This document shows, piece after piece, positions 17,215 to 37,860 of a stretch of 59,965 nucleotides of DNA. Position numbers and translations under genes: made by a program. How positions within the stretch are numbered: position 1 is the first letter of the stretch; each line of letters begins with the position of its first letter. The notes below the pieces were generated by a model that made no database searches, was not told the origin of the DNA, and saw only the letters and a list, made by a program, of their open reading frames with translations. Origin of the DNA: Candidatus Woesearchaeota archaeon (GTDB lineage: Archaea; Nanobdellota; Nanobdellia; Woesearchaeales; GW2011-AR4); NCBI GenBank assembly GCA_016177615.1, contig JACOUX010000019.1, positions 1 to 59,965 of the forward strand. Reading direction: 5' to 3'.

Positions 17215-17865
17215 CTACTTTCCCTTCCTAAACGCTTCCCATGTGTCTAAAAACTCCTGTATGGTTTCTGTCGTCCTTGGATTTGTGACCATGTCCCTTA
17301 TGACAGGAGGCGTTATGGTAAGGATATGTGCGCCAGTAAGCATAGCCGCATTCACCTGCGATACCTGCCTGAAGCTTCCTAGGATTATCCTTGACTTCAC
17401 GCTGCTTTCACCAAAAAGCTTGACAGCATCTTCAGCGACTTTTTTCGCGTCATAGCCCATGTCTTCTATCCTTCCCCAGAAAAGGCTTACATAATCAGCG
17501 CCTGCCAAAGCTGCAAGGATGGCCTGCTTTGCAGCCATGCACGCAGTTACATTTGTCTTTATTCCAAGCTCCGAAAGGGTCTTGACGGCTTTCAGGCCAT
17601 TAACATTCATGGGAATCTTGACCACAACATTGCTGCCCCACGAATTGTATTCCTTTGCCTCGCTTATCATTCTGGAAGAATCATTTGTAGTGACTTCTAT
17701 GCTGACAGGCCCTTTTACAAGCTGCAAGATCTCCTTCATCCTCTTCTCGAAATCAACCCCTTCTTTTGCGCAGAGCTTTGGGTTTGTTGTACAGCCTGCC
17801 ACAATGCCCCAGCTAAGAAGCTCTTTCAAATCATCCAATGATGCAGTGTCTGCGAATATTTCCAT
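17215..17865 (-). CDS. tal: Transaldolase / fructose-6-phosphate aldolase (subfamily 3B)
   Basis: MEIFADTASLDD...GCTTNPKL...VVKIP (Schiff-base Lys region); 216 aa is typical of short TalC/Fsa-type enzymes. Confidence 0.9.
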   Translation of the reverse strand: MEIFADTASLDDLKELLSWGIVAGCTTNPKLCAKEGVDFEKRMKEILQLVKGPVSIEVTTNDSSRMISEAKEYNSWGSNVVVKIPMNVNGLKAVKTLSELGIKTNVTACMAAKQAILAALAGADYVSLFWGRIEDMGYDAKKVAEDAVKLFGESSVKSRIILGSFRQVSQVNAAMLTGAHILTITPPVIRDMVTNPRTTETIQEFLDTWEAFRKGK

Positions 17866-17942
17866 TTTTAATATGTCGGAAATATACCATTAATCTATGA
17901 TTGATGGACGTAAGTCCAATGTAGTTGTACAAGATGATATAT

Positions 17943-17970
17943 TTCCGAGCATGCTCAAAAACCACCTGTC
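17943..17970. repeat. Copy A of a 28-nt intergenic motif (TTCCGA-N3-TGCTCAAAAACCACCT-R-TC)
   Basis: 24 of 28 nt identical to 30410-30437, including a 16-nt exact core. A partial inverted copy lies at 18021-18036 and a related GTGGTTTTTGAC at 17191-17202. Confidence 0.5.
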
Positions 17971-17983
17971 TGCACGGGATGGC

Positions 17984-18595
17984 TTACAAGGCTTTCAGCC
18001 CATCATGCCACCCGTCTGTGACGGGTGGTTTTTGACATATTTTTAAATCTTCTACCTTTATCCTTAATGCAGCCTCATAAAGGTCTTTCACAATCTCAGC
18101 CTTAACTTTTTCCTGATGCATAAAATTGAAAACGTCATTTCTTTTAATGCCAATCAAAAATCTTTTGCGGAACGGCAAATCCACTTTTAAGTCGCTCAAA
18201 TTATCCCCGACAGCATATGATTTTCTAACGTCTATTTTAAATTTTTCTATTGATTCATTGAATAGTCCGTGCTTTGGCTTCCTGCAATTGCATTGGCCTG
18301 TAAACTCAGGATGGTGGATACAATTATAGATCGCATCAACTGGCAGCGATTTAAGAATTTTTCTGTCAATCTCTTCGAGGTCTTTTGCCTTTATGTAGCC
18401 GAAAGCCACCCCAGGCTGGTTGGATATCACTATAATCTTAAATCCGGATTGCTTAAGGGTTTTCAAGGCCTTGCCGACTTTAGGAAGAAAGTGAAGCTCT
18501 TTGGCATTCATGGCGCTGTAGATTCCTTTCTCATCATGGTACATCACCTTGTTTATCACACCATCTCGGTCAAGGAAAACTGCCTTTGATTTCAT
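17984..18595 (-). CDS. gmhB: D-glycero-D-manno-heptose 1,7-bisphosphate phosphatase (HAD, GmhB type), copy 1
   Basis: VFLDRDGVIN (HAD motif I) and QCNCRKPK (GmhB Zn/Cys motif). ATG 18595 forms an ATGA overlap with the upstream stop. The C-terminal roughly 20 aa read through a hairpin element. Confidence 0.8.
   Translation of the reverse strand: MKSKAVFLDRDGVINKVMYHDEKGIYSAMNAKELHFLPKVGKALKTLKQSGFKIIVISNQPGVAFGYIKAKDLEEIDRKILKSLPVDAIYNCIHHPEFTGQCNCRKPKHGLFNESIEKFKIDVRKSYAVGDNLSDLKVDLPFRKRFLIGIKRNDVFNFMHQEKVKAEIVKDLYEAALRIKVEDLKICQKPPVTDGWHDGLKAL
18008..18033 (+). terminator. Perfect 9-bp hairpin followed by T5 (intrinsic-terminator-like), embedded in the gmhB 3' end
   Basis: CCACCCGTC-tgt-GACGGGTGG-TTTTT. 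No plus-strand gene lies upstream, so its role is unclear. Confidence 0.35.
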
Positions 18596-19314
18596 TTGCC
18601 CATCTCCTGCCATAGGCTGCTCAATTTTTCCATTGTACCAATCTCCCTGTAGACAATATCATCAGGCATGACATAGCCATAAAGCTTTTTCTTCTCCTTC
18701 AAAAGCAAAGGGAAAAGATCGTATCCAAAATCAAATTTTTTCCTTGGAATGAATTTAAGGACATTAGGCTCAAGAATGTAAATTCCTGCATTAACCAGCC
18801 TGAAGGATTTGGATGACAAATCCGCCTCATCGATATCTGGCCTTTCAATGAACCTTTCGACCCTTAAGTTTTTATTCAAAATGACAGCGCTTGAGCTTTT
18901 CTGGCTGCTATTTTTTTTATGCAGCGCAATAGTTGCGAATGAGCCATTTGACTTATGGAATCTAGCAAGGTCTTCTAAGTCAAGGGTTGTAAAATTGTCG
19001 CCGTAAATCACGATAAACCTGTCATCAAAGAAATCCTCTGCGAGCTTCAAAGCCCCTGCAGTGCCCATTGGCTCTTTCTCGATTGAATATCTTATTTTTA
19101 CACCAAACCTTTTCCCTTCATTGAAATGGCTCATTATCCCTTCAGGCATGTAATGCAGGCACAATAACAGCTCTTTTATGCCGTATTTCCTGAACAATTC
19201 CACCTGATGCTCTATAAGCGGCTTGCCCGCAACCTTGATCATTGGCTTGGGCAAAGAGCTTGTCAATTTCCTCATCCTTTTTCCAAAGCCCCCTGCAAGA
19301 ATTACCCCTTTCAT
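18592..19314 (-). CDS. hddC: Sugar-1-phosphate nucleotidyltransferase, HddC-like (D-glycero-alpha-D-manno-heptose-1-P guanylyltransferase)
   Basis: MKGVILAGGFGKRMRKLT (GxGxR loop) and NAGIYILEP. Sits with gmhA, hddA and gmhB. Confidence 0.7.
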   Translation of the reverse strand: MKGVILAGGFGKRMRKLTSSLPKPMIKVAGKPLIEHQVELFRKYGIKELLLCLHYMPEGIMSHFNEGKRFGVKIRYSIEKEPMGTAGALKLAEDFFDDRFIVIYGDNFTTLDLEDLARFHKSNGSFATIALHKKNSSQKSSSAVILNKNLRVERFIERPDIDEADLSSKSFRLVNAGIYILEPNVLKFIPRKKFDFGYDLFPLLLKEKKKLYGYVMPDDIVYREIGTMEKLSSLWQEMGK

Positions 19315-19318
19315 GGAT

Positions 19319-19930
19319 TTAATCAGAATGCCTTATCTTTTCAATCAGCGCGAATATGATAAGATGGTGAAGCGCTATATGGAATGACTCAACATGAGGG
19401 GTTGAGTCTGCAGGAACAACAATACATGCGTCGCATATCTTCCTGAACATGCCTCCGTCAAATCCGGAAAAGCCGATTGTCTTTGCCCCTTTATCTTTGG
19501 CAAACTTCATTGCCTTTGGCAGGTTTTGGGACCACAAGCCGGCATCACCTGTGCCAGAGCCGCCGTGCACTGAAAACCCGACAACAACATCTCTAGGCTC
19601 TATAAGGTTTTCAAGCTGTCCCGTGAAAAGATTTTCAAACCCGTTGTCATTTGTCCATGCGCTCATAAGGGGAATATTGTCAGTCAATCCTATTGCCTTG
19701 AACCTTTTCTTTCCCGGCACGATAGAGGTCTTTGACAGGTCAGCAGCGAAGTGCGTTGCAGTGGAAGCTGACCCTCCGTTGCCCATTGCATAGACCTTGT
19801 TGCCATTCCTCCATGCCTCAAAAAGAATGTCGATTGCCTTGCTAATGTCTTCTTTCGATGTTTTTTCAATTACCTCGTGCATTTCGGAAAAATATTTTTC
19901 TATGAATTGCAAATTTTCCATTTTCATCAA
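19319..19930 (-). CDS. gmhA: Phosphoheptose (sedoheptulose-7-P) isomerase, SIS domain
   Basis: GNGGSASTATHFAADL and FSVHGGSG motifs, about 200 aa. Confidence 0.85.
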   Translation of the reverse strand: MMKMENLQFIEKYFSEMHEVIEKTSKEDISKAIDILFEAWRNGNKVYAMGNGGSASTATHFAADLSKTSIVPGKKRFKAIGLTDNIPLMSAWTNDNGFENLFTGQLENLIEPRDVVVGFSVHGGSGTGDAGLWSQNLPKAMKFAKDKGAKTIGFSGFDGGMFRKICDACIVVPADSTPHVESFHIALHHLIIFALIEKIRHSD

Positions 19931-20907
19931 ATGTCCAAAACAACCTTAGAGCCCTCAAAATCGAACCCGAAGCGCATCTCCTTTAAGCCTTTTTCTGCCA
20001 TTGCCTTTCTGAGGCCGGATTTGGCGCCGTCGCAGTAAAACATGAAAAATCCCCCTCCGCCTGCTCCCATTATCTTCCCTCCCATGGCCCCGCTTTTTAT
20101 GGCAGCATTATAGCACTCGTCTATAAATCCGTTCGATACCCTGCTTGATATTTTTTTCTTCGCGTTCCAGTGCACGTCAAGCATCTCCCCGAATCCTTTG
20201 GTGTTTCCCGACTCAAGACATTTTTTTGTCTTGATCGCTATCTCCTTGATTTTATGAAGATAGTCAACAGCATTCCCGCTTTCCTGGACAGACTTGTTTT
20301 GCTCTGAAAGCACATAAGATGACGGCCTTCTTATGCCGGTATAGAAAAGAAGGATATTATTTTCCAGCTCTTCCAGGGCATCACGAGCGATTTTCAGAGG
20401 AGTGACTGTAACTTTTCCGCTGCTGTCAAATTCAAGGCACTTTAAGCCCCCAAAAGATGCCATGTACTGGTCCTGCTTTCCGATAGGCTCCTTCAATATG
20501 TTTATCTCTATCCTGCAGGCTTCTTCAGCAATCTCATGGTTTGTTATATGCTCCCTTTTATGCGCGTGAATAGCCCTTAAAAGCCCAACAAGGAAGCTGC
20601 TGGAAGTTCCAAGGCCGCTGTTTGAAGGCACATCAGCCAATGATGTAATCTCAATTCCATCTGTGATTCCGAAAAGCCTGAGGCTCTCCCTCACTGTTGG
20701 ATGCTGCAACTCATCAACATTATTAACGGTCTCTGTCTTTGAGTATTTGACCTGAAGTCCGCTTTCGAACATCTTTGTAAGAGTCACATAAATATATTTG
20801 TTTATGGCCCCTGCAAGAAGAAAGCCATTATGCTTTGAATAATAGGATGCTAAGTCAGTGCCGCCTCCTCCAAGTGATATCCTTACAGGGGTCCTTGTTA
20901 TTATCAT
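19927..20907 (-). CDS. hddA: GHMP kinase, HddA-like (D-glycero-alpha-D-manno-heptose-7-P kinase)
   Basis: RISLGGGGTDL N-terminus, GHMP motif II VPSNSGLGTSSS and GAGGGGF motif III. ATGA overlap with gmhA. Confidence 0.75.
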   Translation of the reverse strand: MIITRTPVRISLGGGGTDLASYYSKHNGFLLAGAINKYIYVTLTKMFESGLQVKYSKTETVNNVDELQHPTVRESLRLFGITDGIEITSLADVPSNSGLGTSSSFLVGLLRAIHAHKREHITNHEIAEEACRIEINILKEPIGKQDQYMASFGGLKCLEFDSSGKVTVTPLKIARDALEELENNILLFYTGIRRPSSYVLSEQNKSVQESGNAVDYLHKIKEIAIKTKKCLESGNTKGFGEMLDVHWNAKKKISSRVSNGFIDECYNAAIKSGAMGGKIMGAGGGGFFMFYCDGAKSGLRKAMAEKGLKEMRFGFDFEGSKVVLDI

Positions 20908-26136: not shown

Positions 26137-26634
26137 CTATTGATTTCTGTAAACGCTCAGGATTCTGCTTATGACTTTTGTTGTCGAATATTCCTTCTCC
26201 ATCTTCGCTATTACAATTTTCCCCCCATTATTTTCAACAATGCCTTTTTCCAAGATTTCGCTTGGGCTGTAATCGCCCCCTTTTGAGTGGACATTCGGCT
26301 TTATTTTTGACAGCCAGCTTCTTGGATCAGGTTCCCTGAACGTGAAGATATAATCGACGCTTTCCAGCCCAGCCAAAACACCCATTCTTGATTTCTCATT
26401 GTTGATTGGCCTCTTGTCACTTTTGAACTGCTTGACAGAAGAATCAGAATTTATGCCCACTATCAGTATATCGCCCAGCCTTTTTGCCTCCTCAAGGTAC
26501 TTTACATGCCCGAGGTGCAGGATGTCAAAAACCCCGTTTGTGGTAACAATTTTTTTGTTTTCCTTTTTCAGCCTTTTGGCTATTTTGATAATTTCTCCCA
26601 AAGTCTTGATTTTATCGCTTATTGCCATTTTCAA
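26137..26634 (-). CDS. hldC: D-beta-D-heptose-1-phosphate adenylyltransferase (stand-alone RfaE/HldE domain II)
   Basis: TTNGVFDILHLGHVKYLEEAK (HxGH cytidylyltransferase-fold motif); 165 aa. Confidence 0.8.
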   Translation of the reverse strand: MKMAISDKIKTLGEIIKIAKRLKKENKKIVTTNGVFDILHLGHVKYLEEAKRLGDILIVGINSDSSVKQFKSDKRPINNEKSRMGVLAGLESVDYIFTFREPDPRSWLSKIKPNVHSKGGDYSPSEILEKGIVENNGGKIVIAKMEKEYSTTKVISRILSVYRNQ

Positions 26635-27154
26635 AGTTCTCTATAATCCACTTAGCGGCATCCAGCAGGTCTCTTGCGGCATAATCAGGATGAACTTCAT
26701 TTTTCGCATTGCTTCCATAGCCAGTCATGACATGAATTGTCCTGCACCCTGCATCCCTTCCCATCTCGAAATCGCTTTTCCTGTCCCCTATGACAAAAGA
26801 CTTCTGCAGATCCACATTAAACTCCTCTTCTGCCTGTTTCAGAAGCTTGATTTTCGGCTTTCTGCAATCGCAGTTGTCATCAGGCTTGTGCGGGCAGTAA
26901 TAAGTCTTTGCAATTGATATTCCGTTCTTTTTCAATTCATCCAGGACCCTTTTATTGTAATTAAAAAAATCCTCAAGCTTGTAGTATCCCCTTCCTATTC
27001 CGGACTGGTTTGTGATAAAAAATAATTTATAATCCTTGAGCACTTTAAGCCCTTCAATTGCGTTTGGAATCAGCTTAAAGTCCTCTATCCTGTGCACATA
27101 TCCTATGTCCTCTGTCACGACCCCATCACGATCCATGAAAATAGCCGGCATCAT
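26612..27154 (-). CDS. gmhB: D,D-heptose 1,7-bisphosphate phosphatase (GmhB), copy 2
   Basis: IFMDRDGVV and DNCDCRKPK motifs; 180 aa. Confidence 0.85.
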   Translation of the reverse strand: MMPAIFMDRDGVVTEDIGYVHRIEDFKLIPNAIEGLKVLKDYKLFFITNQSGIGRGYYKLEDFFNYNKRVLDELKKNGISIAKTYYCPHKPDDNCDCRKPKIKLLKQAEEEFNVDLQKSFVIGDRKSDFEMGRDAGCRTIHVMTGYGSNAKNEVHPDYAARDLLDAAKWIIENFENGNKR

Positions 27155-28125
27155 AAGTCCTTAATCTCCTTTTTTATTTCATCAATGCTCACCGTTGCCG
27201 TGCCTATCTTGCCTACTTTTATGCCAGCTGCAATATTTGCAATGACAGCGGCGTCCTTCAGGCTGGCGCCCGAGGCCATCGCAAGGGCAATTGCAGCAAC
27301 AACAGTGTCGCCTGCCCCAATCAGGCTATAAACTTCCCTTGCTTTTGTTGGAATGTGGGTTATGCTTCCGCCTGGCTCAAATAAGGACATTCCTTTTTCC
27401 CCCCTGGTGACAAGCACACTTGTGTTCAGCTGCTTCAGAAGCCTGTTGCCGATTTCTATTACTGCTTCGTCACTTCCGTCTTCAATCCCCGCCATTTCAG
27501 ATGCTTCGGCATTATTTGGAGTTATCAAGGTTACATTTGAATAGAAATCCCTGTGCTTCGGCTTTGGGTCAACAATTATGGGCTTATTGAGTTTATTGCA
27601 TAATTCAATTGCCTTGCTGCCGATTTCCCTTGTAATTACTCCCTTTGCATAATCAGAAATGACCACTACATCCATGTCTTTTACGCTTCTTTCCAGAAAT
27701 TTTATTATCAGCGTCTCAACTTTTTTGTGCACGTGCTCTTTGTTCTCGTAATCAACCCTCAAAAGCTGCTGGCTCCTGCCTATCACCCTTATTTTCTGCG
27801 TCGTTGGCTTATCGCTGTCAGTAACAATTCCATCGGTAGTTATGCCCTTTTTTTTGAGCTCTTTAAGGAGAATGGCCTTTGCGCTGTCATTTCCGGCAAT
27901 GCCCACCATGACAGCCCTGCCGCTCAACGCAGAAATATTGTTGGCGACATTTGCTGCGCCCCCTGCCTCATAAGTTTCCCTAATCACATTTACCACCTGC
28001 ACTGGCGCCTCTGGGCTTATCCTTGAAACGTCGCCCCATATGTACTTGTCAAGCATTATGTCGCCTATGACCAGGATATTCTTGTTTTTGAAATTCTCCA
28101 GGATTTTCAGCAGCATTTGCTTCAT
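27151..28125 (-). CDS. hldA: D-beta-D-heptose-7-phosphate kinase (stand-alone RfaE/HldE domain I, PfkB family)
   Basis: ILVIGDIMLDKY N-terminus, GGAANVA and the IGAGDTVVA PfkB signature. Confidence 0.85.
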   Translation of the reverse strand: MKQMLLKILENFKNKNILVIGDIMLDKYIWGDVSRISPEAPVQVVNVIRETYEAGGAANVANNISALSGRAVMVGIAGNDSAKAILLKELKKKGITTDGIVTDSDKPTTQKIRVIGRSQQLLRVDYENKEHVHKKVETLIIKFLERSVKDMDVVVISDYAKGVITREIGSKAIELCNKLNKPIIVDPKPKHRDFYSNVTLITPNNAEASEMAGIEDGSDEAVIEIGNRLLKQLNTSVLVTRGEKGMSLFEPGGSITHIPTKAREVYSLIGAGDTVVAAIALAMASGASLKDAAVIANIAAGIKVGKIGTATVSIDEIKKEIKDL

Positions 28126-29033
28126 TTGATTTCACCCTTTTCAATAATCAGCCTGTGCAGCGTAGGTATTGTCTTTTCATGCCTTCCAATGATCATAAAT
28201 CCCTTTCCGCCTAATGAAATCGGCCTTGTCACAACATTTTCCCTTGGCCTGTAATGGTCAATCATGTCAAAGTTCGCAGCTGTGACGTTTTCAATTTTAT
28301 GCCCCAGATTTCTTGCGATTGTCAGTGCTTTTAAGAATACCTCAGGCAGGATTACTGCACACCCAACGTTTAAAATAATTCCCTCTTCAAGCTTGCTAAC
28401 GTTTTCAGTGAAAATCTTGAAATCCTGATATGAAGTTTTCCCGATTGCAGCCCCGTCGCAGCTCGGATGCTGGTGCACAATGTCGGTTCCGATTGCTATA
28501 TGCACAGTAACTGGAATCTTCAGCCTGTATGCATTGTACAAAATGCTGCATTCCTTGTTTGGCAAATTCAAGTCATTTATTTTTTTGCCGATAGCGTATC
28601 CCGCTCCAAAATTATTTTTTGCCCCTTCTTTCAGCGCGTCATTGAGAATTCGTCCGGTTTCCTCGGTCATTCCGAATGTTCCGTCTTCAATTGTTTGCTC
28701 GACATACTCTGAAGTTTCCCCTATTAATGCCAATTCAAAATCATGTATCGGGCCTGCGCCGTTCATAGCAACATGCTTTATTATCCCTTTTTTCATCAGG
28801 TCTATGACAAGAAAGCTCATTCCGGTCTTGATGACATGCGCACCCATCATGAGGATTATCTCCTTCTTCCTGACATGAGCATTGATTATTCTGTACACTA
28901 AATCATTCAATTCTATAGAATCCATTAAAATCTCGGAGTTTTCTGGCTTAATCAAATCACTTAGCCTTACCTTGTTCTTTCTCTGCCTTATGGGGATTGT
29001 CTTGATTTTGTTGAAGTCCAGCATTTTAATCAC
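28122..29033 (-). CDS. Deoxyhypusine-synthase-like (DHS/sirtuin-like Rossmann) family protein, function unknown
   Basis: MMGAHVIKTGMSFLVIDLMKKGIIKHVAMNGAGPIHDFE and IPVTVHIAIGTD follow the DHS-fold pattern (mobile Gly-rich segments, VxxxGxxxxD). Recognised from memory only. Confidence 0.45.
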   Translation of the reverse strand: MIKMLDFNKIKTIPIRQRKNKVRLSDLIKPENSEILMDSIELNDLVYRIINAHVRKKEIILMMGAHVIKTGMSFLVIDLMKKGIIKHVAMNGAGPIHDFELALIGETSEYVEQTIEDGTFGMTEETGRILNDALKEGAKNNFGAGYAIGKKINDLNLPNKECSILYNAYRLKIPVTVHIAIGTDIVHQHPSCDGAAIGKTSYQDFKIFTENVSKLEEGIILNVGCAVILPEVFLKALTIARNLGHKIENVTAANFDMIDHYRPRENVVTRPISLGGKGFMIIGRHEKTIPTLHRLIIEKGEIK

Positions 29034-29446
29034 TTGAATATTTCTTCATTTAATCTTCTTGCAGGCCGCAGCTTTACATTATCATCATTGTCAGTTGTTG
29101 ATATTTCCAAAACAGTGCTTTTTGGCACTAATGATTTGAACGTATGAATCACCCTTGGCTCCAGCCTGAATTTGTCGCCTTTCTCCAAAACAATTGTGCT
29201 GGCAGGAGCATCTAATCCGCTTGCATAAGTGAGAGAGACCTTGCCTTCAATGACAACAAACGTCTCGTCTTTGCGCTCATGATAATGCCAGCTTGACTCG
29301 AACCCCTCGTGCAAAATCAAAAGCTTATTGCAGTACTTTTCGTTGTTCTCAATCCACAGCTCATAGCCCCAAAGATGGTCGTGCCTCTCGCCTTTAAACC
29401 CTGCCAAAAATTTAACATGCTCCTCTTTGAATTTTTTCTCTGACAT
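29030..29446 (-). CDS. Cupin-domain protein (sugar isomerase/epimerase-like)
   Basis: ESSWHYHERKDETFVVIEGKV...RLEPRVIHTF matches the two-motif cupin signature; 138 aa. First gene of the operon. Confidence 0.75.
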   Translation of the reverse strand: MSEKKFKEEHVKFLAGFKGERHDHLWGYELWIENNEKYCNKLLILHEGFESSWHYHERKDETFVVIEGKVSLTYASGLDAPASTIVLEKGDKFRLEPRVIHTFKSLVPKSTVLEISTTDNDDNVKLRPARRLNEEIFK

Positions 29447-29458
29447 TATTCCACCTTA

Positions 29459-29477
29459 AGTATGAACTTTTCATACT
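29459..29477. promoter_or_regulatory. 8-3-8 perfect palindrome in the divergent promoter region; candidate operator
   Basis: AGTATGAA-ctt-TTCATACT. The half-site ACTTTTCATAC recurs as a direct copy at 29550-29560. AT-rich TATA-like tracts lie between them. Confidence 0.45.
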
Positions 29478-29576
29478 CTATTTATAAGCTTTTCGCTTTT
29501 GGATTATATACTTGATAATATAAATATATATAAAGTAATACTTTTTACTACTTTTCATACCTTAAATCCTGTCAAA

Positions 29577-30329
29577 ATGGCAAAATCCAAGATTGCGATA
29601 TCTGTTGACAATTCCCTGCTGAAGCTCGTAGACTCAAAAGTGGACGGAAGCGTAATCAGGAGCAGGTCGCAGGCGATAGAATATTTCATGAAAAAAGGGC
29701 TGCAGGAGCAGTCTGTCAGCACTGCCGTATTATTGCTCAAGGGAGAGCATCAGGAAAATGCGCTTAAGGATGGGAAAGGAACCAGTTTGATAAGGCAGCA
29801 GATTGATTTCTTTGCAAGCCACGGAATAAACAAGCTGTACATTGTAACTCAGCATACAAGGCACATGAATAAGCTGCTGGAGGCAGTTTCAGGCTCTAAA
29901 ATCAATGTAGAGATTGTTGAAAAGCAGGCAAAAGGCAATGCAGAGGCAATGACAGCAATAAAGGATAGGGTGAAAAATAGCTTTATCGTGATGTCCGGCG
30001 ATACGTACAATAACTTTGACTTGTTAAAAATGATAAAGAAGCACATAGATACCGATAAACTATCAACAATGGGGCTGATGACAAGGGAAAAGCCCTCACA
30101 TTATGGAACGGCAATCTTGGACGGAGATTTAATTGTTGATTTCCAGGAAAAGCCGAAGCATTATTCCACCAATATAGTTAATGCCGGGATTTATATCTTC
30201 AAGCCCGAGGTCTTTGAATTATTTGAAGGCGCGGCTTCACTGGAGAAAGAGCTGTTTCCAAGATTGGCAAGGTTAAAGCAATTGGTTGGGTTTTTTACGT
30301 ATGGGGAATATGTGCATGTTGGGGATTAG
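29577..30329 (+). CDS. Ribbon-helix-helix (CopG/NikR-type) domain fused to a nucleotidyltransferase-like domain with degenerate active-site loop
   Basis: N-terminus KIAISVDNSLLKLVDSKV...RSRSQAIEYFMKKGL is an RHH pattern. The C-terminus aligns to the HddC-type NTase (MSGDTYNNFDL, NAGIYIFKPEVFE), but the GGxGxR loop is replaced by LLKGEHQ. ATG 29577 is preferred over the TTG at 29499. Confidence 0.6.
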   Translation: MAKSKIAISVDNSLLKLVDSKVDGSVIRSRSQAIEYFMKKGLQEQSVSTAVLLLKGEHQENALKDGKGTSLIRQQIDFFASHGINKLYIVTQHTRHMNKLLEAVSGSKINVEIVEKQAKGNAEAMTAIKDRVKNSFIVMSGDTYNNFDLLKMIKKHIDTDKLSTMGLMTREKPSHYGTAILDGDLIVDFQEKPKHYSTNIVNAGIYIFKPEVFELFEGAASLEKELFPRLARLKQLVGFFTYGEYVHVGD

Positions 30330-30346
30330 GATTATTTTTTAAACAT

Positions 30347-30414
30347 CGGAATTCCACCCTATCTATTATAGGCGGTTTCGTAAACTCAACCACAGACATT
30401 ATTGTGGAATTCCG
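30347..30414. repeat. 11-bp perfect inverted repeat (CGGAATTCCAC ... GTGGAATTCCG) enclosing 46 nt
   Basis: 30347-30357 and 30404-30414 are exact reverse complements. The second arm overlaps the start of motif copy B. Confidence 0.6.
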
Positions 30415-30437
30415 ACTGTGCTCAAAAACCACCTATC
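30410..30437. repeat. Copy B of the 28-nt intergenic motif
   Basis: TTCCGActgTGCTCAAAAACCACCTaTC compared with copy A at 17943-17970. Confidence 0.5.
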
Positions 30438-30496
30438 ATATTTGTAATTTCTATATAATAGTAACATTTATATAATATTTTGATTTGCTGAGGATA

Positions 30497-31564
30497 ATGG
30501 CAGAAGTATTGCAATTCAAAATATATAAAGCTGTTGCGGAGAGAAGTGATAATGGAAATTTGGTTAAACTTTGGTATCCTAAAGATAAAGAAATAACTTA
30601 TACCCCATTTCCTCCAAGGATAGAATTTGGGATAGAGTCCTATGAGCGCTTAATGACTGATGGACGGACAGAAATAGCCAATAATGAAAATCCAATAAAT
30701 CCCCCATCTGGCGTAGAACTCTATTTTTTTAACGATGATAAATTTGTTTGTGGTAACAGAGGTCTTGGTGCAAGAACACAGAAAAAAACACATACTGCAT
30801 ATGGGGGCTACCCTCAATCTTTAGATGAGGTTTTAAGTGCTGAAGGCATTAGGAGTATTGCGTATCGCGAATATGCCGAGGAGATTGTAATGCTAATAAG
30901 GGATGCTCCTTCATATATGGTTATACCTAACATGACAGATGAAAACCGGCTTAAAGAACGTGTTGAATACTCCTTAAGATGTGCAAGGGAAAGGTTAGGA
31001 TTAGAATTAAAGCCACACATCGTTGATGTTGAATTTAAAGAGCCAGTTGATACACTTGAAGTTTATAACGAAAATGATGAGATATTATTTAAAACAAAAG
31101 TTAATTTAGACTGGATTTTTCATCCTGTTACTTCACTCGAAGCATTTTATTCAGGACGTTTTACCAACTTGTCTTCTGAAGAAATTATTCCGTTTGATAC
31201 AGAAGGAGACTTTGCAAATGGAAAATTTAATCGCTTAAACCTTGAATCTTGGGTAGTGGACTTAGAAGATATTAAGGGAAAACCATTTGGATGCATATTA
31301 AAAAATCCAAGAGTTTACCAGACTCAATTTGAAGGAAGCACTCCCCAAGCAGCTATTGTTAATTTTTCTGAGCCATATATTGGTCCTGAAGGAATAGCTG
31401 TCGTGAGCCCTTATGTATTTTATCCTAATCAATTGTTAGTTAGATTGCTTGGTGCGCATGGTGTCCAGGGATTTGAAAACTGGGTTAAAATTCAACATCA
31501 AAAAGATAAAGCGCAGATGGACGGCAAATTTTTGATTGACGAAGCATTAGTGAGGAAAGGATAA
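30497..31564 (+). CDS. Hypothetical protein with a degenerate Nudix-box-like segment
   Basis: E-GIRSIAY-RE-Y-A-EE-I-V-M fits E-x7-RE-U-x-EE-x-G-U except for Gly to Val and the missing upstream Gly. A GAGG ribosome-binding site lies 5 nt before ATG 30497. No other recognisable domain. Confidence 0.4.
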   Translation: MAEVLQFKIYKAVAERSDNGNLVKLWYPKDKEITYTPFPPRIEFGIESYERLMTDGRTEIANNENPINPPSGVELYFFNDDKFVCGNRGLGARTQKKTHTAYGGYPQSLDEVLSAEGIRSIAYREYAEEIVMLIRDAPSYMVIPNMTDENRLKERVEYSLRCARERLGLELKPHIVDVEFKEPVDTLEVYNENDEILFKTKVNLDWIFHPVTSLEAFYSGRFTNLSSEEIIPFDTEGDFANGKFNRLNLESWVVDLEDIKGKPFGCILKNPRVYQTQFEGSTPQAAIVNFSEPYIGPEGIAVVSPYVFYPNQLLVRLLGAHGVQGFENWVKIQHQKDKAQMDGKFLIDEALVRKG

Positions 31565-31578
31565 AAGTGGTTATTTTT

Positions 31579-32541
31579 ATGAATAAGAAAGCATTTCAGT
31601 TAGAAGATTTATTGTCAAGTTTAGGATTTGATGATAAAACAGTTGTATTAGGCGTAGCTTCATTGTTGGGCGGGCAAGCAATTAGGAGGAATCATAGATT
31701 ATCTGATCAGCCTCAAACAATTAAGAGTGATGGCTCTACTGTAGGAACACTAGACCAAATTAGCGGCAGAGCTATATCAAAATATGTCAATTCAACCCAA
31801 GCAATACATACAGTTAGATTTAAGTCTGAAGAAAACACGTATTTCAAACAGCCTGAGTCCTTTGAGTTCGCTGGAATTTTTGACGAGCTTGATGGAAGCA
31901 TAAATCCGCTTATGGGTGGAACTAATTTATATTATATTGGGGTAGGCGGTGTTATTCATCAAAGAGAAGGTGATAAGCAAATTGCAGCTGCTGTTTATTT
32001 GCCGTTTGATGATCCAAAATCAATATTCGTAGCTGAAAAAGGAAAAGGCACATACAGAATAAACCTGTCAAGAATGGATTTCAATAAACTTATCCTACAG
32101 AAATTCGTTTCCCAGAAAAACACACTACTTGAGTCAGGGTGGATGAGCGAATCAACATTATTAGCTGAGCAGGCTTTACGTGAAAGCGGTTTTTATCGGG
32201 AAATGGGATATAACACTGCAAGGGATAAAAATAGCGGTGGCATGTTTCAAACAATCAAAGCTATTAGAGACAACCATCAGGTATTGGTAAATTTTGCTCC
32301 GTCTCATCAAGCAGACTATTGTTATCTTTTATTGCAAGAAGCTGGAGCAGATGTTATTGGACAAGATGGAAGCCAGATTTATTCAACAAGTTACGCCATG
32401 CTTTCCATAGCTCCATCTTTTAGTGGAGATAAAGAGAAGCTTAAAAATACATTTGTTGAAGCAATGAGATCCCCTATTTTAGGTAATAATTATATGGGGG
32501 TTTATCCTGGAAAGATTATATTAAATAGAGTATGTGAATAA
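31579..32541 (+). CDS. Inositol-monophosphatase/FBPase/CysQ-fold phosphatase-like protein
   Basis: KSEEN (metal-binding Glu), FDELDGSINP (a DPxDGT-like motif) and ADYCYLLLQEAGADV (a WDxAAG...EAGG-like motif). Confidence 0.6.
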   Translation: MNKKAFQLEDLLSSLGFDDKTVVLGVASLLGGQAIRRNHRLSDQPQTIKSDGSTVGTLDQISGRAISKYVNSTQAIHTVRFKSEENTYFKQPESFEFAGIFDELDGSINPLMGGTNLYYIGVGGVIHQREGDKQIAAAVYLPFDDPKSIFVAEKGKGTYRINLSRMDFNKLILQKFVSQKNTLLESGWMSESTLLAEQALRESGFYREMGYNTARDKNSGGMFQTIKAIRDNHQVLVNFAPSHQADYCYLLLQEAGADVIGQDGSQIYSTSYAMLSIAPSFSGDKEKLKNTFVEAMRSPILGNNYMGVYPGKIILNRVCE

Positions 32542-32547
32542 TTTTTT

Positions 32548-33687
32548 CTAAACCATCTTCTCAACTTCCTTCAGCACATCATCCACGCTTATGTTCTTCA
32601 TGCATTTTTGGTAGTCGTTTGAATTTCTTGGATAGAGGCAGTCAGGAACCTGTCCTTTGTGAACATTTATGCACGGTGAAAATTCACAGTTATATCCTTT
32701 GTACAGGCTAACATTCCCTTTGCCGTAAGGACCGAAGCGTACCGGGAGATTTGGGCCGAATAACCCAAGCGTCCTGATGCCCTGCGCTGCCGCGATATGC
32801 ATCGGGCCTGCGTCGTTGCCGACAAACAATTTGCATTTTGTGATTAAATAAAACAGCTGGGTCAAGGTAATTTTTCCAGCAAAATTAAAACACTTGCTTT
32901 TGTTCTCCATTTTTTCAATGATGCCATTCACTAAATCCATTTCATCAATGCTTCCAGAAAAAACTATCTTTGCATTATGCCTTGCAATAACTTCGTCACA
33001 CAGCTCAGCATACCTTTCAAGAGGCCACATCCTTGCCTTTGCAGATTCAGCTGCCCCGGGAGCAACACAAACAACAAAATCATTTTTTTTAATTCCATTT
33101 TTCTTCAAAAAATTGTCAACAATTTTAATATCATTTTTTGAATAATTCAGCTCAGGCAGCTTCTCTGCATCATAATCAATTCCCAAAATCCTTGCCAGAT
33201 CCAGAAATGTCTGCACAGCATGCTGCTTGTCATTATACCTGACTCTCTCGTCGTATAGTTTTGACCTTGCTCCATGGGAATAGCCGACAACTCTCTTTCC
33301 TGCAAAGAAAGAAATGATTGCGGAAACATTGAGGTATTCCTCCATATCAATAGCCAAGTCATATTTTTTGTTGTTATTTATAATAAAATTCAATACAGAA
33401 AACAGGCTTGTTTTGACATAAAGGATATTATCCACTTTATCATTGCCAAAAAAAACATCCTTATTTCTTGAGGTTGCGAGAATATCTATACGGGAATCGG
33501 AAAATTTTTTTCTCAGCGCTTCTATTGCCGGCAATGCCAATATTGTCTCTCCAATGCCCCATAGCTGGACAACCAGGATATTTTTAATTTCGGACTTATT
33601 AATGGGCTTTCGTTTAGCAAAAGCTCCGAGTAGGCGGCAAATGATTTTGCCCAAATGCCTGTCAATCAGCTTTGTAAGGAGTACCAT
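32548..33687 (-). CDS. Glycosyltransferase family 9 (heptosyltransferase-like), second copy
   Basis: ILVVQLWGIGETILALPAIEALRK and FVGNDAGPMHIAAAQGIRTLGLFGP are GT9 hallmarks. Confidence 0.8.
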   Translation of the reverse strand: MVLLTKLIDRHLGKIICRLLGAFAKRKPINKSEIKNILVVQLWGIGETILALPAIEALRKKFSDSRIDILATSRNKDVFFGNDKVDNILYVKTSLFSVLNFIINNNKKYDLAIDMEEYLNVSAIISFFAGKRVVGYSHGARSKLYDERVRYNDKQHAVQTFLDLARILGIDYDAEKLPELNYSKNDIKIVDNFLKKNGIKKNDFVVCVAPGAAESAKARMWPLERYAELCDEVIARHNAKIVFSGSIDEMDLVNGIIEKMENKSKCFNFAGKITLTQLFYLITKCKLFVGNDAGPMHIAAAQGIRTLGLFGPNLPVRFGPYGKGNVSLYKGYNCEFSPCINVHKGQVPDCLYPRNSNDYQKCMKNISVDDVLKEVEKMV

Positions 33688-33746
33688 AATGAGGCAGAAT
33701 ACTATGCGCTTTTTAAAGATTTAGAAATGCGGCTCAGCCATTCCAT

Positions 33747-34082
33747 TTATTTTTTTCTTGCTTTTTTGATAGCCAGCGACCTTACAACGGCTTCAATCCT
33801 GCCTTGGTTTTTTCTTGTAAGGGCGTATGTGTAAAAAATAGCCGCTATCAAAAAAAGAAAGCCGCTTATGGTCAGCAGATCCAATGCCCTCAGAAAGCCG
33901 ACTCTTTTTACTATTGGATCCAATATGGACGGAAAAAGCGCAACAATTATAAATAATATCCATAGCGCCAGCCAGAATGCAAATTCCTTTGTTGTGAATT
34001 CCCTTCTTTTGTAGTGCAGAAATGAATAATATACCATAAAAAGCCCAAACAAAAATCCTGCAATCTGAATCCCAAGCACCAT
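33747..34082 (-). CDS. Small membrane protein, DUF2304-like (commonly paired with GT2)
   Basis: 111 aa with 3-4 TM helices and a basic C-terminal tail, immediately downstream of a GT2 gene as in the DUF2304 family. Confidence 0.55.
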   Translation of the reverse strand: MVLGIQIAGFLFGLFMVYYSFLHYKRREFTTKEFAFWLALWILFIIVALFPSILDPIVKRVGFLRALDLLTISGFLFLIAAIFYTYALTRKNQGRIEAVVRSLAIKKARKK

Positions 34083-34086
34083 CTTT

Positions 34087-34755
34087 TCACCTTCCTCCGT
34101 TTAGTTTCCACCAAAGCATATTCAGAACTATCTTTATCCCGTCTATCACAGTTGTGCCCTTGTACTTGTCTGAATATATTGTCCGGATTGGAATTTGCAC
34201 ATATTTTAATCTTTGCTTTCCCGCCCTTGCTATCATCTCTGATTCCATCGAATAGTCTGAGGCGTTCCACCTGATTTTCCTGTATGCCTCGCTTGAAAAT
34301 GCCCTGAAGCCGCACTGCGTGTCCTGCAACTTTACATTGTATAATATCTCCACAATCCTGGATATGAACCAGTTTCCAAAATGAAGAACCAGAGGCATTT
34401 TTTTGCTTGGTTTCCTGTAGCCCAAAATAACGTCATACTTATCTAACTTTTCGATGAACCTTGGTGTATCGTCGGGATTGTGCTGGGCATCAGCGTCCAA
34501 TGCAATTATATGCTTGGCGCCGTTTTTTACAGCAAAGTCGCAACCTGTCTTGAGGGCCGCGCCCTTTCCCAAATTTACAATGTGCGTTAGCACAATTGCG
34601 CCTGCCTTTTCTGAAACATTCCTTGTTTTATCTTTGCTGCCATCATCAACTACAATGATATTTAAGACATGCTTTCTGGCCTTTCTTATAATGCCTGAAA
34701 TGCTTCTTTCTTCGTTATAGGCAGGTATCACCACCCAGATATTGCTGGTTTCCAT
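34087..34755 (-). CDS. GT2 glycosyltransferase (dolichyl-phosphate sugar synthase-like)
   Basis: WVVIPAYNEERSI...IIVVDDGSKDKT...ALDADAQHNP. Abuts the aglB stop with no gap. Confidence 0.85.
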   Translation of the reverse strand: METSNIWVVIPAYNEERSISGIIRKARKHVLNIIVVDDGSKDKTRNVSEKAGAIVLTHIVNLGKGAALKTGCDFAVKNGAKHIIALDADAQHNPDDTPRFIEKLDKYDVILGYRKPSKKMPLVLHFGNWFISRIVEILYNVKLQDTQCGFRAFSSEAYRKIRWNASDYSMESEMIARAGKQRLKYVQIPIRTIYSDKYKGTTVIDGIKIVLNMLWWKLNGGR

Positions 34756-37700
34756 TTAAGAATTATTTGCTAAAGATGTTTTGTTGGCTTCTGGCAAATT
34801 GGCAGGCTCACTGGATGCAATATTTGCGGATTCCATTTTCTCTTCGGATTTTACGAAAAAGCCGGCGTATTCATCTACTATTGTAGTATTCCTACCATCC
34901 CAGTCAACTTTATAGGTGTAGATATCAGTGCCAGTCAATCCCCTTTGATGATTAAATGGCTTAAAGAACCTCAGGCCATGGCCATTCATATAAAACATCC
35001 TGGTAAACATGCTTCCTGCAAGTTCCTTGTTTGTCAGGACAGCGCTTACCTCGCTCTTGCTGTTTGGAAGTATTGTAAGCCCTAAATCAGCAGTATTGCC
35101 TTCAAATTGCTTTTTCAAGACTCCGTCTTCTGTTGCAAAAGCAACTATTCTGGGCCTGACGATTCCCTCAGGGCCGACCCCGAAAACATCGTAGTTGCTC
35201 ATATTTATCTGGAATCCGTTGCTGCACTGGAACAATTTGGCATCATTCCTGCTGCAGCTTACAACTCCGCCGTATGCAGGCCAAGGAGCAATCCAGCTGT
35301 TTGCCCTTCTGTTCCTCTCGTTCGGGTCAGGCTCGTTTAGTATGTCCTGAACTTCTGAATAAATATTTTCTGCCGTATCCTTGGAATAATTGTACTCGTT
35401 CATAATTTTCTCAATCTGTTTCTGCTCGGGCAAATTCCTGTTGTACCATATATCTGCCCTTTTAAAATCCCAGCTTCCAAAATGTGCCCAGACACCGCTT
35501 TTGCCTATCATGTCCTCTGAAGCGATGAAATATGCCTCAGGAGGATTGCAGTGGGTATACTTCAATACGCTCTCCGCCTGGCTTGGGCTTAACCCATATC
35601 CCTTAAGCAAATCTTCGGCACCAGATCTGTCTAAAGAGACTATCTCGTTTATAATTCCTATTGATAAATGGTTGTCCTTGATTAGCTTGTATAGCTCATT
35701 AAATCCTTCGCCGCTTCCGCAGTCCAGCATTCTTAAAATTCCCATGGCCTTGGCTTCGTCGTCAAGCATCAGGATCTTGCCAACCCAGTGCGCAGGCGCA
35801 AATGTCTGGGTAGTGCCGTCAAATGTTACCCTTCTGTCAGCAAGCGCCTTAAAGTGGTGCCCAAAATCCCACCATGATGTTATTATTGCATCTTCTTTTG
35901 AGTCCTGCTTTATTGCTGCAAGGGCGTTATACCATACATCGTTTATCAGCGGTACGTCATACTTCGCTGCGTTTAGTGCAGCTTTAGTCGGGCTTATATA
36001 CATAAGAAGCAGCAAAATTATCAGAATGCCGCCACCAATTATTTTATGAATCTTAAGCTCCCTGTTCAGAGTTCTGGATAAATATCCGTAAGCCCTTCCC
36101 AGAGCAACCCCGAATGCCACGCTGAAAGCAGGTGCAAGCAGAAGAGTGAACCTTATTCCCTTGATGCTCGCAAAAATGGTGGAAGCAACCCATAAGGACA
36201 ATAATATTGGCAGCCTGAAGTCATATGACGAATCTTTTTTATAGATAGCAATCAGGATCCACACAATAATCGGAAGCATTATCCATGCCAGCAGGCCATA
36301 CAGCGATATCTCAATTCCTATCTTGATTAGGATAAAATATGATGTATAGAAAAGTATGGATACAATCAGATAAGCCAGCTCGAATCTTCTTATTCCTTCT
36401 TTTCTGGACACTGACAGCACAATTCCAAGAAGGCTGATGTAGAATAGGAAAGAGCCGCCTACAGAGTTGATGATGCCGCCTATCGAGCCCTCGTTAAGCT
36501 CGGCTACTGTTGTAAGCACGTTTGGCCAGACTGAAGTCGTGATAGGGGCCTTTATTGACGGGAAACTAAATGGCCCAATGAAGCTTTCCTTAAACGAGTT
36601 CCATCCCAAAAACATTGATACAAAGAGCAGGCTTGACGCAAAATAGACTATGCCAATTATAAGGATGTTCTTTAGCGCAGGCACGGATAAAACATGCAGG
36701 TAATCCCTCCTTATTTCATTAAAGCTTATTAAAACCATATATAAAAATGTGATTGCTATAGTAGCGATAATAAAGTCAAATATGTACCACCAGCCGCTCC
36801 ATGTAAACGAGAATACTCCTGTAAAAAAGCCAGCAGCCAAAGACAGGGCAGCAGCTTTTAAAATGCTTCGCACATCAAAAGCCAGTAAAAACAGCCATGT
36901 TACAATCAGCGGAAAAAAAACAACCCAAATGTCATTATCCGCATGGCCGAATAATGTTCTTCCGAGAAAAGCCCCGTTGACAGCCATGATTAGGCCAGCG
37001 AAAAAGCCGCTTAAGTTTCCGGCTATTCTTCTGGCGATAAGAAAAACAAGCATTATGCATAATGCCGAGACAAGGACAGGCAAATAGAATATAGAGCGCA
37101 TTAATGTAATGCCTGGGGAGAATAAGTGCACAAATTTATAGAAATAAGCCAATGAATATGCATGGAACATATCCGGAAATACAAATCTCCCGATTGGGGC
37201 CAATTGATGGGTGTCATATGACCTGCCGTCTTTCAAAATGTCTCCTGGATGGCCATTCTCGACAATGTTTTTTGCGTACCTAAACCAATAATAAGGATCA
37301 ATGTCAGGCATGTAGTTTTTTCCGCCCTCATCCTGGTAAAAAGACTTGAAGTATGCCGAAGTGGCTGTTATCTGGCTGTCAATCTGCTGCTTATTCTGGC
37401 TTGTAACTTTTTGAAGCTCGGTGCTGACAAGAGCGTCTTTGTTTGCATCAGGGAGATTTGGATACTGCTGGTCAATTGCAGACCTTATTTGCGACCTTAT
37501 TCCGTTGATAACGCTGTTTGACGCCCAGTCATCTGCAAACCCAAGTGAGCCTGCCTGCATCCTTACATAAATAGACAGGATGATCGGGATCAGAGCCAGC
37601 AAAACAACCCCATATTTCCTTAAAAAATCAGATATTGCGCTCCAATTTATTGGAATATCATGCTCATCACCATGCTCTTTTCCGGATGGCTTGAAGAAAT

Positions 37701-37860
37701 TTTTTAGCCTGCTGAAATCTATGCTCAGCTCGTCGCTGCTTTCCGCTTCCTTTCCAATTGAAGCATTTGATTCTGCCTTGCTTTCTTCTTTGCTGCCCCT
37801 GAAGAAGTTTTTTATCTTGCCAAAGTCTATGCTTATATCATCATCTTCCTTTGAATCCAT
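34756..37860 (-). CDS. aglB: Archaeal oligosaccharyltransferase AglB (STT3 family)
   Basis: 1034 aa with about 13 TM helices followed by ITSWWDFGHHF (the WWDYG catalytic motif) and a large C-terminal periplasmic-type domain. It also has an unusual repeat-containing N-terminal extension. Confidence 0.9.
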   Translation of the reverse strand: MDSKEDDDISIDFGKIKNFFRGSKEESKAESNASIGKEAESSDELSIDFSRLKNFFKPSGKEHGDEHDIPINWSAISDFLRKYGVVLLALIPIILSIYVRMQAGSLGFADDWASNSVINGIRSQIRSAIDQQYPNLPDANKDALVSTELQKVTSQNKQQIDSQITATSAYFKSFYQDEGGKNYMPDIDPYYWFRYAKNIVENGHPGDILKDGRSYDTHQLAPIGRFVFPDMFHAYSLAYFYKFVHLFSPGITLMRSIFYLPVLVSALCIMLVFLIARRIAGNLSGFFAGLIMAVNGAFLGRTLFGHADNDIWVVFFPLIVTWLFLLAFDVRSILKAAALSLAAGFFTGVFSFTWSGWWYIFDFIIATIAITFLYMVLISFNEIRRDYLHVLSVPALKNILIIGIVYFASSLLFVSMFLGWNSFKESFIGPFSFPSIKAPITTSVWPNVLTTVAELNEGSIGGIINSVGGSFLFYISLLGIVLSVSRKEGIRRFELAYLIVSILFYTSYFILIKIGIEISLYGLLAWIMLPIIVWILIAIYKKDSSYDFRLPILLSLWVASTIFASIKGIRFTLLLAPAFSVAFGVALGRAYGYLSRTLNRELKIHKIIGGGILIILLLLMYISPTKAALNAAKYDVPLINDVWYNALAAIKQDSKEDAIITSWWDFGHHFKALADRRVTFDGTTQTFAPAHWVGKILMLDDEAKAMGILRMLDCGSGEGFNELYKLIKDNHLSIGIINEIVSLDRSGAEDLLKGYGLSPSQAESVLKYTHCNPPEAYFIASEDMIGKSGVWAHFGSWDFKRADIWYNRNLPEQKQIEKIMNEYNYSKDTAENIYSEVQDILNEPDPNERNRRANSWIAPWPAYGGVVSCSRNDAKLFQCSNGFQINMSNYDVFGVGPEGIVRPRIVAFATEDGVLKKQFEGNTADLGLTILPNSKSEVSAVLTNKELAGSMFTRMFYMNGHGLRFFKPFNHQRGLTGTDIYTYKVDWDGRNTTIVDEYAGFFVKSEEKMESANIASSEPANLPEANKTSLANNS

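Follow-up and report, generated by a model that had tools for sequence, protein, structure and literature searches.

The window analysed here, a stretch of 59,965 nucleotides (nt) from a Candidatus Woesearchaeota archaeon (contig JACOUX010000019.1), contains a plus-strand gene (29577..30329) for a protein of 250 residues in which an N-terminal ribbon-helix-helix (RHH) domain is fused to a degenerate sugar-nucleotidyltransferase (NTase) domain. The open reading frame (ORF) runs from the ATG at 29577 to the stop at 30329 and is divergent from a minus-strand operon for the synthesis of an activated heptose, whose first start codon lies at 29446. The spacer between the two holds two predicted operators: O1, next to the heptose operon, and O2, next to the RHH-NTase gene. 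A preliminary description of the locus, made from the DNA letters without database searches, had read the protein as a candidate nucleotide-sugar-sensing regulator, and we follow up that reading with searches of protein families, solved structures, and related loci. A possible upstream start at TTG 29499 was rejected, since the extension is unconserved and the ATG abuts the promoter and operator in most related loci.

A NikR-Type RHH Domain at the N Terminus

The first 47 residues (29577..29717) carry the β-strand KIAIS and the helix-2 N-cap RSRSQAIE of a NikR-type RHH domain. When a profile built from 60 family members is compared with solved structures, its best match is the RHH domain of Escherichia coli NikR (E = 3.5e-9, residues 2-43), followed by an RHH antitoxin, Pyrococcus horikoshii NikR, and CopG (4.8e-4). 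The window protein by itself gives a weak NikR match in NCBIfam (residues 5-48, E = 0.0037), and among 139 family members Pfam detects RHH_1 in 56 and NTP_transferase in every one, so that the CopG/NikR-type N terminus proposed earlier holds. An AlphaFold monomer model made from 139 sequences (predicted local distance difference test score of 94.6) has an extended N terminus and helices at residues 12-20 and 30-44, then a Rossmann-like domain. The segment is thus the β-strand-helix-helix module of ~45 residues that defines the RHH superfamily (CopG/Arc/MetJ/NikR), recognized here by sequence profile; its helix-2 motif RSRSQAIE aligns with NRSEAIR of NikR and preserves the N/S-R-S-x-x-I pattern of RHH proteins. 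In such domains the helix-2 N-cap RSRS is a DNA-backbone contact motif, and K3, K5, A7, and R28-S31 are invariant in 80 orthologues.

The preliminary description had raised the objection that the true start might lie downstream of the RHH segment. For codons 1-48, comparison of 70 orthologous loci with the window gives 1487 synonymous and 723 nonsynonymous codon differences, and 1885 third-position compared with 476 second-position differences; this synonymous excess indicates that the RHH segment is translated and constrained by purifying selection. We also rejected a toxin-antitoxin reading, in which an RHH antitoxin would be joined to an MNT-type NTase, because the C-terminal fold is of the GMPPB/RmlA type and not Pol-β and because there is no partner toxin gene.

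A Nucleotidyltransferase Domain without Its Catalytic Loop

Residues 48-250 (29718..30326) make up an NTP_transferase-fold domain that we predict to be a noncatalytic effector domain. It matches Pfam NTP_transferase (PF00483) with E = 3.9e-24 but only over profile positions 28-188 of 245; as the match begins at position 28, the start of the domain that holds the GxGxR loop is missing. The fold itself is well placed, with profile matches to GMPPB (1.9e-44) and HddC (1e-28) and, for the AlphaFold model, best Foldseek matches to GMPPB/VTC1 (template modelling score of 0.73), GMPPA, and AGPase at E about 1e-18; neither the Foldseek nor the profile searches returned any solved structure in which an NTase fold is joined to an RHH domain.

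Alignment shows what has replaced the missing part: the degenerate phosphate loop AVLLLKGEHQ (29724..29753) stands where intact relatives read AIILAGGxGTRLxPLTxxxPKP, with ~10 residues deleted, so that both the triphosphate loop (GGxGxRL) and the PKP lysine are absent. The earlier observation that GGxGxR had given way to LLKGEHQ is thereby borne out by the intact relatives as well as by the truncated Pfam match. At the C terminus, the WxDxGT of intact relatives is YVHVGD in the subfamily of the window protein, and the stop follows. In enzymes of the RmlA/GlmU type the lost loop and lysine hold the phosphates of the nucleoside triphosphate, and the motifs that line the sugar-phosphate site are the ones retained here, namely GD, YG, EKP, and NAG. 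In the 80 orthologues (55-84% identity), D142 (GD), E191-K192 (EKP), and N202-A203-G204 (NAG) are invariant and Y176-G177 is conserved in at least 90%, and the replacement loop K55-Q59 is weakly conserved; at 35-50% identity that loop varies freely (KGEHQ, KGSHQ, SKNDQ, NETDQ, HPDYA). The most economical reading of these sequences, and the most likely one, is that catalysis has been lost and the binding pocket kept.

A contrary view is that the protein is still an active NTase, in which K55 and H58 of KGEHQ replace the lost Arg and Lys, and that it makes a nucleoside diphosphate (NDP)-sugar while the RHH domain adds autoregulation in the manner of PutA or BirA. Invariance of the Mg-binding GD and of EKP and NAG would agree with this, and the catalytically intact RHH-NTase paralogues described below, with their phosphomannomutase-type gene and TCATAC repeats in their own promoters, probably do work in such a way. 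For the window protein we consider it unlikely: GTRL and the lysine of PKP are lost with the deletion, the aspartate of the C-terminal DxGT has been exchanged, a loop this free to vary does not follow the pattern of a catalytic loop, and the neighbouring operon has an adenylyltransferase of its own, or HddC in loci of the GDP type. Nor do we put much weight on the possibility of constitutive DNA binding, in which the protein would repress or activate without sensing a small molecule, its NTase-like domain would be no more than an oligomerization scaffold, and control would be exerted by protein level or by another partner. Loss of the nucleotide loop may indeed abolish NDP-sugar binding, as that explanation would have it, but the pocket-lining residues are among the most conserved positions of the alignment, and a pure scaffold would not require such conservation.

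A Near-Invariant Predicted Operator at the Heptose Promoter

O1 (29459..29477) is the palindrome AGTATGAA-ctt-TTCATACT, with the core GTATGAA-N3-TTCATAC at 29460-29476. The perfect 8-3-8 arrangement beside the cupin start is as the preliminary description had located it and is unique in the window. O1 sits inside the interval from the heptose operon's putative TATA box to its first start codon; the putative archaeal B recognition element (BRE)/TATA lies on the minus strand at 29480..29496 (GCGAAAAGCTTATAAAT), which we take to be such from the known archaeal promoter consensus, and the block TTTATAAaTCTTTCG is conserved beside O1 in aligned loci. Across loci the distance from O1 to the TATA/BRE-like block is 2-25 bp, and that to the start codon is 0-20 nt.

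A single palindrome of this kind could arise by chance, as 37 of 100 shuffles match with up to three mismatches, but the conservation of O1 across species is far beyond chance. Of 81 loci, 74 have the site; when sequences are anchored on it, information content approaches its maximum at the 14 specified bases and falls to almost nothing in the flanking DNA. If up to two mismatches are allowed, GTATGAA-N3-TTCATAC has 84 matches in the 900 kb of these 81 loci, with none outside the promoters of heptose operons and of the regulator gene; 71 of the 84 lie no more than 250 bp upstream of the regulator gene, and most of the others are at the operon start. Ten of the remaining 13 are perfect, and those checked (L014, L042, L051, L071, L072, and L086) lie directly beside the heptose gene that comes first in the operon, in loci where inserted DNA separates it from the regulator. 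As perfect sites stay at the heptose gene in these displaced loci, O1 tracks the operon promoter.

A position weight matrix (PWM) built from 73 other loci, with the window left out, gives O1 at 29459 a score of 30.3 bits, compared with 3.7 bits for the next-best site in 60 kb. As to a wider regulon, the PWM scan of the window finds no operator at the glycosyltransferase and oligosaccharyltransferase genes at 32548..37860, no further site upstream of GT9/AglB, and no operator-like site at a second heptose cluster (17215-20907), both of which are described below. Exact copies of O1 are found in 66 of 175 fetched loci, a single one in each and invariably at the heptose promoter; 84 paralogue-family loci from that phylum have none.

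A Subsite Array at the Regulator's Own Promoter

O2 (29535..29560) is predicted between the TATA box of the regulator gene and its ATG and consists of three 7-bp subsites with a period of 9-10 bp, GTAATAC(29535)-ttt-TTACTAC(29545)-tt-TTCATAC(29554). The preliminary description had noted a direct copy of the O1 half-site at 29550-29560, and this copy is present, ACTTTTCATAC occurring as a unique pair at 29466-29476 and 29550-29560; it is not a lone half-site, however, but part of the three-subsite array. The putative TATA-like element of the regulator promoter, assigned from its sequence, is at 29520..29534 on the plus strand (ATAAATATATATAAA), and a conserved TATATAAAG/TATAAATAG motif abuts O2 in related loci, where the block AGTmATACTTTnTACTACTTnTCATAC is also conserved. 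In many of them the ATG directly follows CATACC, an arrangement that points to a leaderless transcript. In more divergent orthologues the subsites number two and are direct or inverted, for example TTCATACtctTTCATAC, GTAATACctaTTCATAC, and GGTATGAAttgGTATTAC. RHH dimers (Arc, MetJ, CopG, omega) bind short pseudo-symmetric subsites once per helical turn and in either orientation, and 7-bp subsites repeated every 9-10 bp, direct or inverted, are consistent with RHH dimers binding to repeated subsites. A search of the spacer for RNA elements gave only a sub-threshold chance match in Rfam.

Half-Sites Recur across the Protein Family

Several distant orthologues carry related half-sites. One with 37% identity (L171) is divergent from a GDP-heptose operon (HddC-GmhB fusion, HddA, GmhA) and keeps GTATGAAcagTTCATAC at the start of that operon, while TTCATACcgcGGTATGAA overlaps its own ATG; another with 38% identity (L177) has GTATGAAttgGTCATAC. 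An orthologue with 30% identity (L172), whose β-strand is KVSVS and not KIAIS, has a variant of the operator, GTAGGAAgttTTCCTAC, in which the two arms are altered symmetrically, and its own promoter has TTCCTAC and TTCCTACcttATACTAC (sites at 4856-4872 and 4981-4997). L176, a further such member with the strand KVSLS, has TCCTAC/TCCCAC repeats. The pattern in L172 is a possible case of protein-DNA co-variation, as judged from the sequences of strand and site. Two members (L173 and L181) lie away from heptose genes, yet their own promoters carry subsites, and a member with the strand RVTIT has four TTCATAC-type subsites.

Beyond the orthologues, a group of intact RHH-NTase paralogues of 278 residues is conserved throughout Woesearchaeota, directly upstream of a gene for a phosphohexomutase of the phosphoglucomutase/phosphomannomutase (PGM/PMM) type. 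A direct repeat TCATAC-N4-TCATAC is found, centred ~57 nt before the ATG, in 42 of 69 nonidentical loci of this group (L087-L170), just upstream of the BRE/TATA, with 49 matches in such upstream positions compared with 7 elsewhere in 326 kb; in L100, for example, the repeat stands about 57 nt before an ATG at 1614. Its sequence features make the paralogue a candidate bifunctional enzyme-regulator. The β-strand of the paralogues (RVTLT) closely resembles the RVTIT of NikR. In E. coli, NikR has the operator GTATGA-N16-TCATAC (PMC7055735), to whose half-sites those of the O1 type are identical.

These distributions bear on the question of which protein binds the sites. The palindrome might be bound by some other, unlinked transcription factor, with the RHH-NTase protein acting at the level of protein, for instance as an allosteric partner, like GMPPA, for an enzyme of the heptose pathway, and its RHH domain serving as no more than a dimerization module. 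An inactive paralogue, GMPPA, is known to regulate an active NTase, and the window also encodes an HddC-like NTase. We nevertheless judge this improbable. Half-site arrays of the same type occur in the regulator's own promoters away from the heptose operon (L173, L181, and L085), TCATAC repeats are found in the promoters of the paralogue family as well, and the half-sites change together with the β-strand in two members. Moreover, 7-bp subsites at a 10-bp period, direct or inverted, are the binding mode of RHH dimers, and the helix-2 N-cap RSRS is invariant.

Distribution and Origin of the Family

A word-indexed search detects 673 homologues, the best 120 of which are 75-84% identical, ~250 residues long, and from Woesearchaeota/Nanoarchaeota. 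An exhaustive search of representatives extends the full-length RHH-NTase architecture to proteins with as little as 27% identity, spread over more than 100 clusters defined at 50% identity, including named members from Nanohaloarchaea and Diapherotrites, and some of the distant members retain every catalytic motif. The count of this architecture across archaea that the preliminary description had proposed thus yields a large family that spans the DPANN archaea and includes catalytically intact enzymes. Distant and intact members together indicate that the RHH-NTase fusion is old and DPANN-wide, the window protein being a branch in which the enzyme has decayed. The loop sequences of relatives grade from the intact catalytic form, by way of partly eroded "ILAGG" versions, to the deletion found in the window protein.

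The association with heptose genes was followed in 80 species-representative loci, all of them from DPANN archaea. The regulator is divergent from a heptose operon in ~70 of the 80, and genes for GT9, DUF2304, GT2, and STT3 are usually next. Source databases name the RHH-NTase proteins nucleotidyltransferase family protein or mannose-1-phosphate guanylyltransferase, an enzyme annotation that is probably wrong for the subfamily of the window protein. Many records titled "uncultured Methanosarcinales archaeon" (L008, L014-L017, L022, L026, and others) carry a locus of the Woesearchaeota type, with 60-84% protein identity, and these labels are probably placeholders or errors.

We found no description of an RHH-NTase regulator in the literature searched, from whose coverage most subscription journals fall outside, and to that extent the earlier suggestion that the family is undescribed stands. 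The literature searched likewise contained nothing relevant on RHH regulators of DPANN archaea or on heptose in Woesearchaeota.

The Heptose Operon and Its Surroundings

All genes of the divergent operon are on the minus strand. The first, a cupin (29030..29446; Pfam Cupin_2 and Lyx_isomer), occupies the slot held by SIS/GmhA in other loci and is a probable sedoheptulose-7-P isomerase analogue. It is followed by a GSU2086-family, deoxyhypusine-synthase-like protein (28122..29033; NCBIfam NF052581, 1.3e-124) in a slot otherwise held by a short-chain dehydrogenase/reductase (SDR) epimerase, and by D-glycero-β-D-manno-heptose-7-phosphate kinase (HldE domain I, 27151..28125; TIGR02198, 8.1e-113), the heptose-1,7-bisphosphate phosphatase GmhB (26612..27154; NF006506, 1.7e-48; TIGR00213, 2e-39), and heptose-1-phosphate adenylyltransferase (HldE domain II, 26137..26634; TIGR02199, 6.4e-55), both HldE matches being above the curated cut-off. 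Genes for glycosyltransferases lie further along the operon. By these annotations the pathway is that of ADP-heptose (HldE type). With isomerase, HldE kinase, GmhB, HldE adenylyltransferase, and a protein in the epimerase slot already present, the operon does not need the regulator as an enzyme, and we rejected the role of a missing pathway enzyme because neighbouring heptose operons are complete without the window protein.

The preliminary description had linked the C-terminal domain to an HddC-type NTase in the same locus. The likeness is real, with 28% identity between that protein (18592-19314) and regulator residues 68-215 (E = 2.8e-12), but the gene is 10 kb away and belongs to a GDP-heptose cluster, not to the divergent operon, so that the HddC-type pathway assigned to the latter has to be replaced by the HldE-type one. 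The cluster in question (17215-20907, minus strand) is a second and complete one for GDP-D-glycero-α-D-manno-heptose and comprises transaldolase/FSA, GmhB, the HddC-like NTase, GmhA, and HddA.

In 64 loci, the two slots between regulator and HldE kinase alternate in content, the first being filled by SIS/GmhA or a cupin and the second by an SDR epimerase or GSU2086, and each of the four possible pairings is represented, in 25, 19, 9, and 5 loci. The pattern resembles nonorthologous replacement of sedoheptulose-7-P isomerase and ADP-heptose epimerase, and it would give the uncharacterized GSU2086 family a function. A different arrangement is found in L179/L180 (2794-3972), where the operon divergent from a distant orthologue is of heptose type but begins with the gene for an APH-like kinase (392 residues), not HldE or HddA, followed by a GmhB-HddC fusion, an epimerase, and SIS; the APH-like protein may be a third type of kinase for heptose activation.

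On the other side of the regulator, a GT9 heptosyltransferase, DUF2304, GT2, and the STT3/AglB oligosaccharyltransferase are encoded on the minus strand at 32548..37860, as seen in the ORFs and in the synteny of most loci. This block, which is downstream of the regulator gene and convergent with it, consumes the heptose donor. The interval between contains two plus-strand ORFs (359 and 324 residues; 30485-32541) with no Pfam match; in related loci it is variable, absent or filled by other genes, and has the look of a hotspot for insertions. A perfect inverted repeat, TCGGAATTCCAC ... GTGGAATTCCGA (30346-30415), of 12 nt with a 46-nt loop, lies 17 nt after the regulator stop. It has an RNA fold z score of -4.4 and no Rfam match, was not found in related loci, and could be a terminator-like element, a small RNA, or an insertion remnant.

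Discussion

Taken together, these results lead us to regard the window protein as probably an autoregulated local repressor of heptose-donor synthesis, with a pseudo-enzyme domain that senses a heptose metabolite. The proposal of a sugar-sensing regulator made in the preliminary description is supported, each of its elements that could be checked having been borne out, and the comparative support is unusually strong. What the analysis shows is how the protein is built, that it has lost catalytic motifs while its pocket is conserved, and that the operators are conserved, where they lie, and how they co-vary. That the window protein binds DNA, in which direction it regulates, and that there is a ligand, and which one, we infer.

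In the mechanism that we envisage, two chains would pair their N-terminal strands to form a NikR-type RHH dimer, each dimer would read one 7-bp subsite of the GTATGAA/TTCATAC type, and adjacent dimers would sit about one helical turn apart. Two dimers on O1 (29460-29476) would occlude the core promoter of the ADP-heptose operon, and two or three dimers on O2 (29535-29560) would bring about autoregulation. Because the positions of O1 and O2, relative to the putative TATA elements, would be typical of archaeal repressors that block recruitment of TATA-binding protein (TBP), transcription factor B (TFB), and RNA polymerase, an autoregulated repressor is the most likely form of control. The NTase-like domain would hold the dimers together, bind a heptose metabolite (heptose-1-phosphate or an NDP-heptose), and tune the affinity for DNA, whether as corepressor or as inducer, ligand binding altering how the RHH dimers are presented to DNA as nickel does via the C-terminal domain of NikR. 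Since orthologues pair with both ADP- and GDP-type heptose operons, the signal is more likely to be something that the two pathways have in common, either a heptose phosphate or the heptose part itself, than any one nucleotide.

Several points weigh against this interpretation. Pfam RHH_1 is not significant when the window protein is searched alone, and in the distant orthologue L179, whose spacer is 28 bp, no recognizable site was found. Co-variation of β-strand and half-site rests on two proteins that may be related to each other, and the identity with the NikR half-sites could be coincidence, because the strand residues are R-T-T in NikR and K-A-S here. The deleted loop normally helps to hold the nucleotide, so that NDP-sugar binding may be weakened, and the ligand may be something else, or there may be none.

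On a broader scale, we see about an even chance that DPANN archaea share an unrecognized family of one-component regulators built from NikR-type RHH and sugar-NTase domains, some of them live enzymes that repress or activate their own operon as PutA or BirA do and others heptose-sensing pseudo-enzymes that switch heptose-donor synthesis for N-glycans or surface glycans. To our knowledge, gene regulation in DPANN archaea has hardly been described, and the same is true of the control of nucleotide-sugar supply for N-glycosylation in any archaeon. The locus offers a complete and directly testable circuit in this respect, with a small soluble protein, a 17-bp operator that is near-invariant across dozens of uncultured species, an ADP- or GDP-heptose target operon, and few candidate ligands to choose from. 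If the reading as a regulator family is right, it would be the first described transcriptional feedback circuit for archaeal glycan-precursor supply. Recognition of NikR-type half-sites would extend to a new effector domain. The intermediates among the relatives document a route by which the enzyme part of a fusion with a DNA-binding domain can degenerate to a ligand sensor, and the change from enzyme to receptor would be traceable stepwise through proteins that still exist.

Comparison with Known Systems

Among known regulators, NikR of E. coli and Pyrococcus has the closest N-terminal RHH domain and shares with the window protein the GTATGA/TCATAC half-sites and, as predicted for the latter, the combination of RHH with a ligand-binding, oligomerizing domain and a role as local repressor of one operon. 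Its C-terminal domain is, however, an ACT-like nickel domain with a His/Cys site, whereas that of the window protein has the NTase fold, which places the latter outside the NikR family. The NikR half-sites are 16 bp apart and those of the window operator 3 bp, a spacing that would put adjacent dimers on one face of the DNA. The strands also differ (R-T-T compared with K-A-S), as do the targets, metal uptake in NikR and predicted sugar-donor synthesis here.

The closest parallel for the C-terminal domain is provided by NTase-fold proteins that have lost catalysis and kept the pocket, namely GMPPA, which is among the best structural matches, eIF2B γ/ε, and the large subunits of AGPase. GMPPA is a noncatalytic NTase paralogue that binds GDP-mannose and exerts feedback control on GMPPB, and thus a precedent for a dead NTase as a sensor (PMC11228364). 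Unlike the window protein, whose output would be transcription, these regulators target partner proteins; they end in a left-handed β-helix at the C terminus and lack a DNA-binding domain.

PutA, BirA, and NadR resemble the window protein in joining a DNA-binding domain (RHH in PutA) to an enzyme fold, such that the status of a pathway controls its own genes, and they are the best analogue for the catalytically intact RHH-NTase paralogues. They differ in fold and pathway, the enzyme of the window protein appears to be dead, and its promoters are of the archaeal TATA/BRE kind. Sugar-1-phosphate guanylyltransferases of the HddC/GMPPB type, lastly, are the closest catalytic relatives of the C-terminal domain, with an HddC-like gene in the window itself, but the window protein lacks their GxGxR loop, PKP lysine, and DxGT, has an RHH domain, and is not required for either heptose pathway. 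On the basis of its sequence, we classify it as a putative RHH one-component regulator with a new, pseudo-enzymatic effector domain.

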